Shown here: positions 11,796-38,740 of the stretch, piece after piece
Layout of the letters: the number at the start of each line of letters is the position of its first letter
Position numbering within the stretch: the stretch's first letter is position 1
DNA from: Spirochaetia bacterium
GTDB lineage: Bacteria; Spirochaetota; Spirochaetia; DSM-27196; Salinispiraceae
DNA: 64,000 bases
Assembly: GCA_038204425.1 (NCBI GenBank)
Contig: JBBRCZ010000002.1
Coordinates: 96,001 to 160,000, forward strand
Direction: 5' to 3'
Position numbers and translations under genes: made by a program
The notes under the pieces: model-generated
The model's database searches: none
Seen by the model: only the letters and a program-made list of their open reading frames with translations
Told to the model about the DNA's origin: nothing

Positions 11796-11802
11796 AGGCA
11801 CT

Positions 11803-11887
11803 GTGTCGTGGGGTGGTTCCTTAAGTGGTGCCTGAGATCATACCCGTTGAACCTGATCCGGATAATGCCGGCGAAGGGAGCAAGACA
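11803..11887 (+). ncRNA. TPP riboswitch
   Basis: GGGGTG...CTGAGA..TACCCGTTGAACCTGATCCGGATAATGCCGGCGAAGGGAG matches the THI-element core; upstream of a YkoE-like gene. Confidence 0.93.
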
Positions 11888-11974
11888 TGCTCAAGGTTAA
11901 ACCCTCTCAACACATTAATTTTTTGTAAGCGCTGCGATAGCTTTAAGTTATTGCCGCGGGCGTAGGAGAAGTAT

Positions 11975-12535
11975 ATGGCCAAAAAATCTGGCTGGAGTTT
12001 GCGTGACATTGTGGTCATGGCAGTAGTGGCAGTGTCGCTCGGTGTTTTGTGGTGGGCATGGACCGCCATTTACAGTCTAGCCGAAGGACCGCTCAAAGCA
12101 ATTCACCCCGGACTGAGTTATCTGCTTGTTGGGGTGTGGTTTACTGGCGGAACCATAATTCCATTTTTAATCAGAAGACCGGGGTCTGCCCTGCTAGGCG
12201 AGGTGCTCGCGGCCGGAGTTCAAGGGCTAATTACTCAATGGGGTTGGACCAGCTTGGTCTGGGGACTCGTGCAAGGAGGCGCAGCGGAACTAGCCTTTGC
12301 CAGCGGCTGCTACAAACACTACGGCTGGCCAACCTTTGCTTTTGCCGGGTTTCTTTCCGGCGCCGCAAGCTACACCATAGACTTCTTTTGGTATCGCTAT
12401 GGTGACACCTACAGTCTGGAAACCTGTCTCGTGCAGGCGCTGGCTTGTATGGTCTCGGGAATAGTCTTCGGTGGACTACTGGGTCGAACAGTTGGCCTTT
12501 CTCTATCAAAAACAGGTCTTGCTTCCAAGGCATGA
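11975..12535 (+). CDS. ECF transporter S component, YkoE-like (thiamine/HMP)
   Basis: W-x-LRDIVV start, IRRPGSALLGE and GLVQGGAAEL motifs; under a TPP riboswitch. Confidence 0.85.
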   Translation: MAKKSGWSLRDIVVMAVVAVSLGVLWWAWTAIYSLAEGPLKAIHPGLSYLLVGVWFTGGTIIPFLIRRPGSALLGEVLAAGVQGLITQWGWTSLVWGLVQGGAAELAFASGCYKHYGWPTFAFAGFLSGAASYTIDFFWYRYGDTYSLETCLVQALACMVSGIVFGGLLGRTVGLSLSKTGLASKA

Positions 12536-14649
12536 CTACCAAGCCCGTACTGCTGCTTACTGACGCGCAACTTAGCCGTTGCACACGGTCGCTGATTAGT
12601 GTCGATAAATTTAGTGTCGCCACTGGGGAGCGCGTGCTTGTGACGGGCCGCTCAGGTTGCGGCAAGTCGAGCTTTTTGCTGGCCTTGGCCGGCATGGTAC
12701 CGGAATATGTTGATGCCCAACTATCAGGTAGCTGGCAGCTTAGTTCGTCAGTTGGGCTAGTTTTTCAGAATCCTTGGTCTCAGATGGTGTGCCCGACAGT
12801 TGAGGACGAAATAGCCTTTGCCCTAGAAAACCGAGGAATGGATGTCAAGACCATACGCTTGCGAGTCGACTCGGTTTTGGAATCCTTGCACATGACCAAG
12901 CTTGCCCACAGGAAGCCTTGGACGCTTTCTGGCGGCGAATGCCAAAAGGTTGCAATTGCAGCCGCCATTGCTCAAGAACCGCAGCTGCTTTTGCTCGATG
13001 AGTGCCTCAGCTATCTAGACAGCCAAGCTGCGGAAGAACTTATAGAATTAGTTGCCAGTCTGCCAGCGCAGATGGCCATAGTGATTGTTGACCACCAACC
13101 TTGGCGCTGGAAGGCGATAGTACGCAAAAGCTATCAAATAGACCAAGACGGCGTCCTAAAAAGTGTCCCTAACTGGCAATCGGCACCGCAACAAGCACCA
13201 CATCACCATTTAGCAAGTCTTGTTCAAGGCCAGACTATGCTCGAGCTGCACGAGGTGGATGCTGTCTACAAGCGTCGTGAGCCAGGACAAGATGAGCAAA
13301 CTGGGCACGTCAACAACTTGGTTCTATCTAAATTCAATTTAAGCCTCAAACAAGGGCAAAGCCTCGCCATAACGGGGCCATCTGGATCGGGCAAAACCAC
13401 CGTACTGCGCCTGCTGACGGGTGTACTAAAACCACAGGCTGGCAACGTCAATGTCCCCAAGGCCATGATTTATGTGCCACAAAACCCCGAGCATTTTTTT
13501 GTTTATCAAAGCGCCGCTGAGGAATGGCAAGGTGCAGAAGATCTTGCTCAGACTTTTGGACTTACTGCACTGGCCAATCGCCACCCCTTTACGCTTAGTG
13601 AGGGCGAAAAAAGGCGACTTACGCTTTGTGCCGCGCTTTCTAGCGCTCGCAAACGGCAACAAGATCTAGTCTTGCTCTTGGACGAACCAAGTTACGGCCT
13701 TGACGCTGCCAGTCTCAATGCCTTTGTACAAGCTATTGAACAGCTGCAAGCAAACGGCTTGAGCATGATTATGGTCAGTCACGACCTATCATTGTGCAGA
13801 CGTTTGGCCGACCAGATTATTGATCTCAAAATTCGCAATCAACCTGCTGTCGACAGTCAAATCTCACTCAAGTCTTCTAGACAGGGCATCTGCAATTTGG
13901 GCGCCAAGATCAATCCCCTAGCGCTGTTTTTGGTAAATTTTTTCTCGCTGATGCCGGTTATGCTTTCACTTGATTACTATGTGCCTGTTTTGATGACCTG
14001 CTTGAGCGTGGTCACTATAGTAGTGTTTCGGCCGCGAGCACTATCGTCTTGGCTGGCGGCCTCGTCTCTGATTGTGCTGGCTAGCTTTTGGGTTTTTCTT
14101 GCCACCGCTGGCTATGGAACTAGCCAAACAGGCCAGATTGTTCAGTTTTTGTGGATTGTTAAACCCAGTAGTGCCTTTGACAAAGCCTTAGTGCTTGCCA
14201 TGCGTAGTGCCGCTATGGCCATGATTTCTTTTTCGTTTGTTTTGATCGTCGACTTAGCTGAGCTTACGCGCTCGCTTATGGTGCAATGGAGATTGTCGCC
14301 GCGTTTTGGCTTTGCGCTTTTTACGGCGCTCAATATTTTGCCGCGTTTGCGCCAAGAACAAAAAACTATCGCCGTTGTGCACCGCATGCGAAGTGGCAGA
14401 CGATTAAATAAGCTTTTGCCTCAAGCCATTGCTTTGTTGGCCGGTGCCATCCGGCATGCCGAGCGCGCAGCTCTTTCTATGGCGCAACGCGGTTTGGAGA
14501 AACAAGCCGACCTTGGACCGCAGCGCAGTTTTTTGTCGGCTAAGGATTGGTCAAGTATCGATACAAGTACAGTGATTGTAGCTCTCTCTTTGATTGCCAG
14601 CAGTGTTTCCATTCTGCTGGCATCGGGATTGTTTAGGTTTGCTTGGTAA
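12532..14649 (+). CDS. Fused ECF module: duplicated ATPase plus C-terminal T component (YkoD-YkoC-like)
   Basis: Two Walker A motifs (GRSGCGKS, GPSGSGKT), two signatures (LSGGE, LSEGE), then hydrophobic helices and SMAQRG. ATGA overlap with the S-component stop. Confidence 0.85.
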   Translation: MTTKPVLLLTDAQLSRCTRSLISVDKFSVATGERVLVTGRSGCGKSSFLLALAGMVPEYVDAQLSGSWQLSSSVGLVFQNPWSQMVCPTVEDEIAFALENRGMDVKTIRLRVDSVLESLHMTKLAHRKPWTLSGGECQKVAIAAAIAQEPQLLLLDECLSYLDSQAAEELIELVASLPAQMAIVIVDHQPWRWKAIVRKSYQIDQDGVLKSVPNWQSAPQQAPHHHLASLVQGQTMLELHEVDAVYKRREPGQDEQTGHVNNLVLSKFNLSLKQGQSLAITGPSGSGKTTVLRLLTGVLKPQAGNVNVPKAMIYVPQNPEHFFVYQSAAEEWQGAEDLAQTFGLTALANRHPFTLSEGEKRRLTLCAALSSARKRQQDLVLLLDEPSYGLDAASLNAFVQAIEQLQANGLSMIMVSHDLSLCRRLADQIIDLKIRNQPAVDSQISLKSSRQGICNLGAKINPLALFLVNFFSLMPVMLSLDYYVPVLMTCLSVVTIVVFRPRALSSWLAASSLIVLASFWVFLATAGYGTSQTGQIVQFLWIVKPSSAFDKALVLAMRSAAMAMISFSFVLIVDLAELTRSLMVQWRLSPRFGFALFTALNILPRLRQEQKTIAVVHRMRSGRRLNKLLPQAIALLAGAIRHAERAALSMAQRGLEKQADLGPQRSFLSAKDWSSIDTSTVIVALSLIASSVSILLASGLFRFAW

Positions 14650-14655
14650 GTGAGC

Positions 14656-15282
14656 CTAGAGATTAGGCTTGGGTGTTTTGACCAAGTAGATCGCTGGCAA
14701 GCTCAGCAAGGTAACGGCAAACTTTACAGCCAAATTGATCAAGAAAATCTGAGCAACTATTTCGAGTGGAAGACCTGGGCTTCCAGGGAGGTCAATTGCA
14801 AAGGCCAAGGTGCAAAAAATTAGATTATCCAGTGGAATTGCTACACTGTTTGAGGCAAGCACTCCTAACCATTGTCGCTTTTCGCCAAAGCGCGCCCTCA
14901 GGCGATGGTAGACCTCAGTGTCCGAGAGTTCAGCTACCAGTTCGGCAATGATGCTGGCAAGCACAATGCGCCAGACTGGTCCCAAAACCTTGTCCCATTC
15001 TGTACCAAGTCCCCACTGAGGATCGGAGCCGACCAAAGTCGTAAATCCTAGGTACAAGGCCATCAATAAATTTACGGCGGCGGCACTAATAATGAGGGTT
15101 TGAGCGGCCTTTTTTCCTAGTGCTTTATGAACCAGATCGCGCAGGGTAAAGGTAATTGGGTACAAAAATGTACCCAAGTCTACCGCCAAACCGGCAAGCA
15201 GGCCAATCTTTAAACTGGCAATATCGGAGACCATCTGAGCGCCCAAGTAGGCACTAATGAGAACAATAGCAGAAACTGACAT
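14656..15282 (-). CDS. Queuosine precursor transporter (YhhQ/Vut family)
   Basis: SDIASLKI, GTFLYPITFTLRDLVH, RIVLASIIA, SNSVAIPLDNLIF motifs; preQ1-like leader. Confidence 0.85.
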   Translation of the reverse strand: MSVSAIVLISAYLGAQMVSDIASLKIGLLAGLAVDLGTFLYPITFTLRDLVHKALGKKAAQTLIISAAAVNLLMALYLGFTTLVGSDPQWGLGTEWDKVLGPVWRIVLASIIAELVAELSDTEVYHRLRARFGEKRQWLGVLASNSVAIPLDNLIFCTLAFAIDLPGSPGLPLEIVAQIFLINLAVKFAVTLLSLPAIYLVKTPKPNL

Positions 15283-15289
15283 AAAGAGT

Positions 15290-15355
15290 CCTTGTTTTGT
15301 TGAGGCGGGTGGCAGCAGGCCAGATGACCGAGCATCAAGCCAAAAAACGACCGCC
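15290..15355 (-). ncRNA. preQ1-I-like riboswitch aptamer 2 (overlaps the SD)
   Basis: GGCGG-UCG...CAC-CCGCC-UCAACAAAACAAGG; the tail resembles the T. tengcongensis preQ1-I tail. Confidence 0.6.
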
Positions 15356-15403
15356 GCAGTTTTTTATCCGGGTGGCGACAAGCTGTCGCGCGCTGCTACC
15401 GGT
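15356..15403 (-). ncRNA. preQ1-I-like riboswitch aptamer 1
   Basis: CCGG-UAGCAG...CAC-CCGG-AUAAAAAA-CUGC; GCAG/CUGC can form the pseudoknot. Confidence 0.65.
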
Positions 15404-15530
15404 TGGTGGCTACTATAGCTAAAAGTGGTCAAACAAGACAAGCTCAAACAGCACAAAGCGGATTGTTTGCAAATTTATTCGAGGCTACTACACTTAAAGA
15501 ATCTCTGGTCCGTCGATAGTAGCGAGCATT

Positions 15531-16085
15531 ATGAGTAAACAAGAACAGGCAACAGAAATAAGCCAGCGGCAGCGCCTCAGCGAGGCTTATCAAAGCGAGA
15601 AGCCTCGCTTTTTGGCAAGACTCAAGAAAGCTGGCAAGACCTTAGAAGAGGCAGAAGACATGCTGCATGAGCTGTATGCCGAAACCATTGAGCGATTGCC
15701 GCTTATGACGGGGGTGCGAAACGTGCCAGCTTGGATTAACTCTCTGCTCAGTCGTCGTTTAATCGATGCCTGGCGACACCAGAAAGTGCGCCATGCCTCC
15801 GGCGAAACGGATGTTGCAGAAGACACCCTGCGTGAGATTATTGCCGGCGCCGGCCTTAATCCGCTGGATGCCTTCGTGCAAGAGAGCATACTTGACGCGC
15901 TCAACGACGCCTTGCGGGCCTTGCCGGATGCGCAGCGTCGCGTCATAGAAGCTCAAGTTTTTGGTGGCAAGAGCTTTAAGGATATCGCTCAAGCCAGCGG
16001 AGAAAGCATAGACACAATAAGTGCGCGTAAACGCTACGCGCTTCGCAACCTTTCACACGCTCTACGCGAGTGGATAGAAGATTAA
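15531..16085 (+). CDS. ECF-type RNA polymerase sigma factor
   Basis: EAEDMLHE (region 2), AWI...RLIDAWR, ALRALPDAQRRV...GKSFKDIA (region 4 HTH). Confidence 0.88.
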   Translation: MSKQEQATEISQRQRLSEAYQSEKPRFLARLKKAGKTLEEAEDMLHELYAETIERLPLMTGVRNVPAWINSLLSRRLIDAWRHQKVRHASGETDVAEDTLREIIAGAGLNPLDAFVQESILDALNDALRALPDAQRRVIEAQVFGGKSFKDIAQASGESIDTISARKRYALRNLSHALREWIED

Positions 16086-16086
16086 A

Positions 16087-16500
16087 GTGGGCCACAAGGG
16101 CCATAGGAGCAAGATTATGGGTGACGGAAGAAGCGAAAAAAGAGAAATGGAAGACTGGTGGGAAGACCGGAGCTTGCCACAAAAAATAGCAGCCGGCATA
16201 GCCTTGGGAATATTGGGCATAGCTTTTCTGGCCCTGTGTGGCTGGATGCTTATGTCACTGTGGAACTGGCTAATGCCCGATATCTTTGGTCTCAAGACCA
16301 TCGACTACTGGCAAGCCTGGGGACTGTTTATTCTGTCGATGATCTTTTTTCATGGTGGAAGCAGCTCTGGCTCAAATGGACGCCGCAGTGAGCGTAAACG
16401 CAAACGCCATCTGCGCCAAGCTATGCAGGATCCGGAGTCCATGCCAATCAATCTGCAAGAACCATTGGCGCAAGCACAAAGTGAGCCTAAGCCAGAATAA
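16087..16500 (+). CDS. Small membrane protein downstream of the ECF sigma factor
   Basis: Two hydrophobic segments with LWNWLMPDIFGL...YWQAWGL. Start codon uncertain. Confidence 0.7.
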   Translation: MGHKGHRSKIMGDGRSEKREMEDWWEDRSLPQKIAAGIALGILGIAFLALCGWMLMSLWNWLMPDIFGLKTIDYWQAWGLFILSMIFFHGGSSSGSNGRRSERKRKRHLRQAMQDPESMPINLQEPLAQAQSEPKPE

Positions 16501-38579: not shown

Positions 38580-38652
38580 GCCCTTGTAGCTCAGTTGGTA
38601 GAGCACCACCATGGTAAGGTGGGGGTCGCCGGTTCAAATCCGGCCGAGGGCT
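38580..38652 (+). tRNA. tRNA-Thr(GGT)
   Basis: Cloverleaf: acceptor GCCCTTG/CGAGGGC, anticodon stem CCACC/GGTGG, GGTTCAAATCC; CCA not encoded. Confidence 0.95.
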
Positions 38653-38667
38653 CACTTAAGATACCAT

Positions 38668-38740
38668 AGGCCAATAGCTCAATTGGTAGAGCATCGGTCT
38701 CCAAAACCGAGGGTTGAGGGTTCAATTCCTTCTTGGCCTG
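38668..38740 (+). tRNA. tRNA-Trp(CCA)
   Basis: Cloverleaf: acceptor AGGCCAA/TTGGCCT, loop CTCCAAA, GGTTCAATTCC; CCA not encoded. Confidence 0.95.

Follow-up and report, generated by a model that had tools for sequence, protein, structure and literature searches.

The closest described relatives of the leader analyzed here are the preQ1-I riboswitches. Those of type II (RF00522), represented by the translational switch of T. tengcongensis (Tte) and the transcriptional switch of B. subtilis (Bsu), are H-type pseudoknots associated with queuosine genes, and in the accessible text of a 2024 review their pocket consists of a G5-C16 floor pair, U6, an A-rich L3 ending in A, and AC before the 3' strand of P1 (PMC11625349). 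Type I, known from Carnobacterium antarcticum, binds two preQ1 molecules stacked in one pocket with possible cooperativity; its L1 contains UU, and P1' is preceded by UC, according to the available sections of PMC8752633. Type III, known from the E. coli yhhQ leader, is described in the available part of PMC10622847 as one compact aptamer that carries a UU motif, with AC at the specificity base. A 2022 survey of tandem riboswitches, carried out with Infernal on RefSeq 80 and environmental DNA, did not find preQ1-I, -II or -III in tandem according to its Table 3 (PMC9481103), and the accessible text of the 2024 review does not mention tandem preQ1 aptamers (PMC11625349). No report of a tandem preQ1-I was found in the available text of PMC8752633, PMC10622847, PMC3766115, PMC2258182, PMC11477304, PMC7641330, and PMC10702441, or in a literature search of mainly open-access sources; the alignments and supplements of McCown et al. 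2014 and Roth et al. 2007 may hold tandem or loop-insert cases. The arrangement presented in this study is apparently a conserved, undescribed architecture of a known riboswitch class.

The glycine, guanidine-II, and NAD+-I riboswitches are dual-aptamer classes in which the aptamers contact each other. In the accessible accounts of glycine and guanidine-II (PMC9481103, Table 1) and NAD+-I (PMC10702441), two homologous units share one leader and one platform, as do the two adjacent homologous aptamers studied here, and single-unit and degenerate forms occur among their relatives too. However, fold and ligand differ, and in the present case the units are end-to-end pseudoknots, in which coupling would be by stacking or strand competition.

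The tandem lies in a 64,000-nt stretch of DNA from a Spirochaetia bacterium, analyzed at its full length and called the window below. It occupies the minus strand at 15402-15356 (unit 1) and 15355-15289 (unit 2), between a sigma-70-like promoter and a yhhQ gene. The features, with the evidence for each, are the following.

15412..15441, minus strand: sigma-70-like promoter, with the -35 box TTGTCT at 15441-15436, an 18-nt spacer and the -10 box TATAGT at 15417-15412 (promoter scan)
15356..15402, minus strand: unit 1, preQ1-I type II-like pseudoknot (sequence; P2 covariation in relatives)
15375..15389, minus strand: hairpin in L2 of unit 1, 6 bp with a 3-nt loop (sequence and folding; unrelated hairpins at the same place in many relatives)
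15289..15355, minus strand: unit 2, preQ1-I type II-like pseudoknot, with no spacer after unit 1 (sequence; P1 covariation, GGUGG/CCACC)
15310..15347, minus strand: unit-2 loop insert, consisting of a run of six U at 15347-15342, a hairpin at 15341-15318 and then UGCUGCCA (folding, sequence)
14656..15282, minus strand: YhhQ/Vut_1 queuosine-precursor transporter of 208 aa, the putative regulated gene (TIGR00697 and PF02592)

The transporter gene scores 99.8 bits against TIGR00697 (cut-off 50.95) and matches PF02592 with E=2.7e-37, and AAGGA at 15293-15289 lies six bases 5' of its ATG at 15282. The predicted promoter puts the transcript start a few bases from unit 1. The promoter scan found one site near the leader against a shuffle mean of 1.0, which is weak by itself, but among 28 distinct tandem leaders, 23 show a -10-like box 5-16 nt ahead of unit 1, compared with 12% of random positions, indicating that the transcript starts with unit 1. 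Scanning for terminators gave no site, neither between the units nor ahead of the yhhQ gene.

The surroundings of the locus contain several other genes. A TPP riboswitch (window 11799-11897, plus strand, 60.6 bits) precedes an ECF-type transporter (11975-14649, plus strand), made up of a PF09819 membrane component and then a 734-aa open reading frame (ORF) with ECF ATPase matches, which terminates six bases from the yhhQ stop on the opposite strand. At 15531-16500 (plus strand), an ECF sigma factor (TIGR02937) and a 137-aa ORF, for which no Pfam or NCBIfam match was found, are transcribed divergently to the riboswitch leader, from which a short common intergenic region separates them. Two neighboring tRNA genes are located at 38580-38740 (plus strand).

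The genome, which is 95.6% complete, carries two tgt genes, queA and queG. No match was found in it for queF or queH, and the QueC family is represented only by marginal partial matches of 70 residues. With tgt, queA, and queG present but queF absent, the gene content fits a cell that would have to salvage preQ1 through an importer. One tgt product is of ordinary size (374 aa), and the other, 665 aa long, also contains a fused PF05430 methyltransferase domain (L189:1486-3483, G000:C6).

A preliminary description of this locus had read two back-to-back preQ1-I-like aptamers from the sequence. All the segments it listed were recovered base for base on the minus strand, and, as it had stated, unit 2 begins with the very next base, 15355, and ends in the Shine-Dalgarno sequence of the YhhQ-family gene. 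Unit 1 has a P1 of 4 bp (CCGG 15402-15399 with CCGG 15371-15368), which has lost its outer pair (A opposite A), and a P2 of four Watson-Crick pairs between GCAG 15396-15393 and CUGC 15359-15356. Its pocket comprises the G5-C16 floor, U6 at 15398, the specificity C at 15372 after A, and the adenine 15360 that ends the A-rich L3 (15367-15360). The predicted pairing probability of its P1 in the absence of ligand is only 0.00-0.19. Unit 2 has a P1 of 5 bp (GGCGG 15355-15351 with CCGCC 15308-15304), the G5-C16 floor, U6 at 15350, C7, the specificity C at 15309 after A, and the adenine 15295 of L3 (15303-15295). The tail that follows, CAAGGA at 15294-15289, holds the Shine-Dalgarno sequence, which is contacted by unit 2 only. 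For P2 of unit 2 there are at least two possible registers, with the G after the U run or with the G of GCUG before CCA-C, and both duplexes are weak (−1.5 and −3.0 kcal/mol).

Both units share the H-type layout, the pocket bases, the A-rich L3, and the queuosine-gene context of preQ1-I type II. Unit 2 resembles the Tte aptamer in its C7 and in carrying the Shine-Dalgarno sequence in the tail, and unit 1 resembles the Bsu aptamer in its fully Watson-Crick P2, which also supplies the G11-C30-type ceiling and shows compensatory changes in relatives. In contrast to type II, two spacerless aptamers serve one Shine-Dalgarno sequence, the hairpin-bearing loops between the P1 strands are 26 and 41 nt rather than the compact 8-12 nt or so, position 7 of unit 1 is a purine instead of the C of Tte, and Rfam scores stay below the cut-off even without the inserts. 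Type I has UU atop P1 and UC ahead of the P1 3' strand; at these places the present units carry UA/UC and AC, and they form two separate pockets. Type III shares control of yhhQ, but neither unit has its UU motif, and of its short pyrimidine-rich loop pairing with AAGG only a U-rich stretch in the unit-2 insert is seen. The pyrimidine-rich unit-2 loops here and in the relatives L031 and L081 could nevertheless pair with more of the Shine-Dalgarno sequence in a type III-like manner.

The preliminary description had suggested that standard covariance models may miss the tandem with its loop insertions. The Rfam scan of the window indeed gave no preQ1 match, either at the gathering score (39 bits for RF00522) or up to E=10. 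However, the inserts do not account for this result, because insert-free relatives also score below 39 bits: 4 of 20 related loci scanned with RF00522 gave 20.8-23.7 bits, all by alignment of an insert-free unit 2, and the L137 region, scanned alone, gave a match for unit 2 and none for unit 1. We also used an independent covariance model built from 16 insert-free relatives, with the present sequence excluded. In the own genome, this model found the tandem with 43.3 bits (E=6.8e-9), agreed best with the unit 2 part, and showed stems and pocket bases to be intact despite diverged loops and flanks. The runner-up, at 20 bits, did not have the two-unit pattern when read and was rejected as a second tandem. 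A strict two-unit descriptor, written after the relatives had been seen, matched once on both strands of the 5.68-Mb genome, at the leader. The folding energy of the leader is ordinary (z = +0.74 and +0.12), and the two inserted hairpins are not significant singly (z = −1.1 and −0.7).

A search of 98 other genomes of the order at E<=1e-25 gave no close orthologue of the transporter, although distant YhhQ-family genes occur in 39 of 41 genomes searched, the own genome included. Close homologues (45-73% identity) occur in other Spirochaetia, on metagenome contigs, and in one family of the class to which an Anaerolineales-titled genome belongs, and the protein names of homologues suggest Promineifilaceae. 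The protein tree of the homologues was a quick version from which two short rows were excluded. We surveyed the 400 nt upstream of 116 distinct homologues with at least 44% identity, the own gene counted. The strict descriptor found 34 tandems, 32 with both specificity C and two (L126, L152) with a C-to-U change in unit 2. A loose descriptor, with a few parses corrected by eye, divided the remaining leaders into 47 with no aptamer, 16 with a single unit 2 and 19 with unit 1 only. The single unit-2 parses include the closest relatives L031 and L081, as well as L132; the loose parse of L146 was rejected by eye as a chance match.

The spacer between the units is zero in all 34 intact tandems, even though 0-40 nt were allowed. 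Most relatives are free of inserts and about 70 nt long, with loops of 10 and 8 nt between the P1 strands. In a set of 28 distinct elements, from which L129 was excluded as a mis-parse (its true unit 1 lies further upstream), all 364 cells of the 13 stem pairs can pair, a result that is partly circular in that the descriptor demanded the pairs. Compensatory changes occur in three of the 13 pairs, of which P2 of unit 1 contributes two and P1 of unit 2 the third. The covariation score was matched by none of 500 shuffles, with the covarying cells coming from about two lineages and the elements chosen by the pair-demanding descriptor. P2 of unit 1 occurs as GCAG/CUGC, ACAG/CUGU, and GCGG/CCGC, and ACAG/CUGU appears again in the separate locus L142. 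The G5-C16 floor pair is invariant (28/28), yet was required by the descriptor, whereas the A before the specificity C in unit 1 (28/28; 25/28 in unit 2) was not demanded. The homologous leaders are conserved and covarying, and the reading of two back-to-back aptamers in the preliminary description is supported.

Its other proposal, a hairpin in each loop, is correct for this leader, but the hairpins are lineage-specific additions rather than parts of the architecture. In many relatives, L2 of unit 1 likewise carries a hairpin and measures 19-30 nt, with hairpin sequences that are unrelated to each other. The unit-2 insert probably sits in L1, before the G that precedes CCA-C, because the two closest relatives place a small insert before the conserved G-CA-C; it is thus probably a different kind of insertion from the L2 hairpin of unit 1. 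A unit-2 loop longer than 10 nt was found in only 1 of 28 parsed tandems, namely the present leader, and this insert accordingly has no covariation support.

Could the leader be a non-functional relic or a chance likeness? The missing Rfam match and the ordinary folding energy would agree with this, as would the lack of a close orthologue in the 98 other genomes of the order, which suggests that the cassette may be a recent arrival. However, the score with the independent model, obtained with stems and pocket bases intact amid diverged loops and flanks, the intact transporter gene, and the fitting salvage pathway make such a reading scarcely credible. We regard it as close to certain that this is a real, conserved preQ1-type leader, and as highly probable that at least one of its pockets represses yhhQ.

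Searches with the RNA model, independent of the protein, covered 121 genomes of the order of genome G292, 54 of which held a total of 55 matches. Of these matches, 32 were yhhQ loci already found. Among 151 genomes of the own phylum, there were two matches beyond the own genome. The 25 new matches (23 and 2) lie upstream of yhhQ (12), queF (8), and queC (4), so that 24 of the 25 precede a queuosine gene; the ORF after the one remaining match is cut by a contig end. The junction pattern occurs in 1 of 301 genomes across the phylum of G292, namely in G292 itself, and the tandem is not phylum-wide in this sample. Among 55 viral stretches with the junction pattern, there was no full-length two-unit match (the best was partial, at 21.4 bits), and a loose unit-2 pattern, which matched at about the control level (29 of 401 genomes), was rejected as evidence, only context-checked matches being used.

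Most matches ahead of queC and queF represent unit-1-type aptamers that stand alone and bear a hairpin in L2 (L286, L289-L291, L294-L296, L298-L301). These lone hairpin-bearing copies support unit 1, including its L2 insert, as a working aptamer. In several of these leaders, a downstream helix overlaps CUGC by 2-4 nt and is likely to form a mutually exclusive switch with it. In nine yhhQ leaders (L096, L100, L104-L107, L113, L114, and L119), a GCGGG/CCCGC hairpin replaces unit 2 and overlaps P2 of unit 1, and a long region of hairpins extends between it and the start codon; the output of these leaders could be transcriptional. In another six (L115, L128, L130, L131, L139, and L140), unit 1 is joined with zero spacer to a plain hairpin, which differs in sequence between leaders and is followed by the Shine-Dalgarno sequence; L139 and L140, parsed as tandems, were rejected as such by eye. 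Tandems with 114-127 nt of repeat-like sequence inserted in L3 of unit 1 (L129, L132, and L285) retain all the pocket bases. Lone unit-2 copies precede yhhQ and queF; those of L052, L070, L012, L026, L254, and L255, in Anaerolineae-class and Spirochaetia genomes, stand before queF-yhhQ operons or distant yhhQ genes. Across all non-viral loci, there are 59 distinct unit-1 elements, 34 followed by an intact unit 2 and 25 not. These 25 and the common single aptamers argue against a strict need for two pockets.

In the present leader, preQ1 might be bound by one unit only. Unit 1 might be the sole binder, rearranging a unit 2 that has turned, with its 41-nt loop, into a ghost aptamer or an expression platform. 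This would be consistent with the decay of unit 2 in relatives, as in the C-to-U change of the specificity base in L126 and L152, with the plain hairpins that stand in its place, and with the lone unit-1 aptamers before queC and queF, and it has a precedent in the two-domain NAD+-I riboswitch, which binds one cofactor according to the accessible text of PMC10702441. However, unit 2 of the present leader has every pocket base, a consensus tail, and the closest agreement with the independent model, and we consider this possibility unlikely. The opposite arrangement, in which unit 2 alone binds and unit 1 is a structural helper or decaying relic whose P2 holds CUGC, gains from the closest relatives L031 and L081 (71-72% protein identity), which retain GCAG...CUGC and unit 2 and have lost the pocket of unit 1, from the missing outer P1 pair of unit 1 in the present leader, and from the 16 of 116 leaders parsed as single unit 2. 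Here, however, the pocket bases of unit 1 all survive around a 20-nt insertion, and they are kept in 59 distinct elements, including lone copies at biosynthesis genes, which makes this arrangement quite improbable. Among the Spirochaetia examined, both pockets are intact in the present genome only: L152 has lost the specificity C of unit 2, and unit 1 is decayed in L031 and L081. Weighing both sides, we think that both units probably bind preQ1.

A related question is whether the two units recognize the same ligand. Position 7 is a purine in 28/28 unit 1 and C in 28/28 unit 2, the latter not demanded by the descriptor, and this consistent difference, together with the lone unit-1 types before queC and queF, could point to a two-input switch in which one unit prefers preQ0 or queuine. 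The guanine-face pocket is the same in both units, however, and preQ0 would be of little use to a genome with no queF match, so that we give such a switch very little weight.

Taken together, the data slightly favor, to our minds, a dual-aptamer, single-platform translational OFF riboswitch for preQ1. By analogy with known preQ1-I structures, each unit would fold as an H-type pseudoknot around one preQ1. The most likely output is that preQ1 in unit 2 draws the 3' tail CAAGGA into P2 and thereby blocks ribosome loading, as in Tte. Unit 1 is too distant to hide the Shine-Dalgarno sequence and would have to work through unit 2, which is less firmly argued, or on the 5' end. In the bound state, its P2 helix would be flush with P1 of unit 2 and could stack on it, and the binding would remove CUGC and the A-rich tail from competing pairings.

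The unit-2 insert may add a further layer in the own genome. It is complementary to unit 1, and an alternative fold that disrupts both aptamers is predicted, which lies 1.4-2.2 kcal/mol below the ensemble with both P1 stems at four transcript ends up to 15270; at a fifth end, which extends the transcript by 30 coding bases, unit 1 is instead predicted to pair with the reading frame in the ligand-free state. The match of the insert to unit 1 was equalled in just 0.02% and 0.6% of 5000 shuffles, in a test chosen post hoc, when the fold had already been seen. The U run of the insert is also predicted to be able to pair with the Shine-Dalgarno sequence, CAAGGA. In the absence of ligand, the insert might thus trap unit 1 in a fold that disrupts both P1 stems; both ligands would then favor the same alternative conformer, giving a steeper response.

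We hold cooperativity between the units to be possible, yet rather doubtful, and the same applies to the specific model in which P2 of unit 1 stacks on and templates unit 2 and the loop insert provides a ligand-free fold broken by both ligands. The predicted secondary-structure coupling is weak: with unit 1 forced, the median change in the cost of unit-2 P1 over 28 elements is −0.16 kcal/mol, with 8 of 28 at or below −0.5 and the present leader at about zero. This median change does not support the idea that the units are generally coupled through a slippage of the unit-2 P1 pairing by 3 nt, and the idea was rejected. We also asked whether single aptamers substitute a hairpin flush with P1 for unit 1 and saw no excess at offset 0 (6 of 26, compared with 5-8 at offsets 1-10), in a blunt test whose set of 26 held some false parses.

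The near-zero predicted coupling would suit two aptamers that both bind but act independently, unit 2 by hiding the Shine-Dalgarno sequence and unit 1 by altering mRNA stability, polymerase pausing, or access to a ribosome standby site. The position of unit 1 a few bases after the predicted start site and the tolerance of L3 inserts of up to 127 nt would fit this as well, and preQ1-I aptamers can, according to the accessible text of PMC11625349, work without strong Shine-Dalgarno occlusion and affect pausing. However, the invariant zero spacer (34/34) would be needless for separate modules, although shared descent could explain it, and we judge independent outputs to be decidedly improbable. 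Whichever way unit 1 contributes, the net effect of the OFF switch would be that plentiful preQ1 leads to less translation of the importer in a salvage-dependent cell.

The tandem family is a direct counter-example to the preQ1-I entry of the 2022 survey, as given in its accessible tables (PMC9481103). It was probably overlooked because neither unit reaches the score required by the standard model. Its members show that preQ1-I loops tolerate entire hairpins, which is relevant to annotation and to aptamer engineering. Within one gene family, they form a natural series of two pockets, one pocket with a plain hairpin, and a single aptamer, with loops from 3 to 127 nt, which is useful for studying the origin, coupling, and decay of dual-aptamer switches. 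The fold is also small enough to be accessible to crystallography and single-molecule experiments. If the tandem is cooperative, its insert-free form of about 70 nt would rank with the smallest cooperative RNA switches that have two pockets, and would represent a second natural route to cooperative preQ1 sensing, beside the two-in-one-pocket solution of type I. For the organism, the tandem may give the transporter gene a sharper off-switch.
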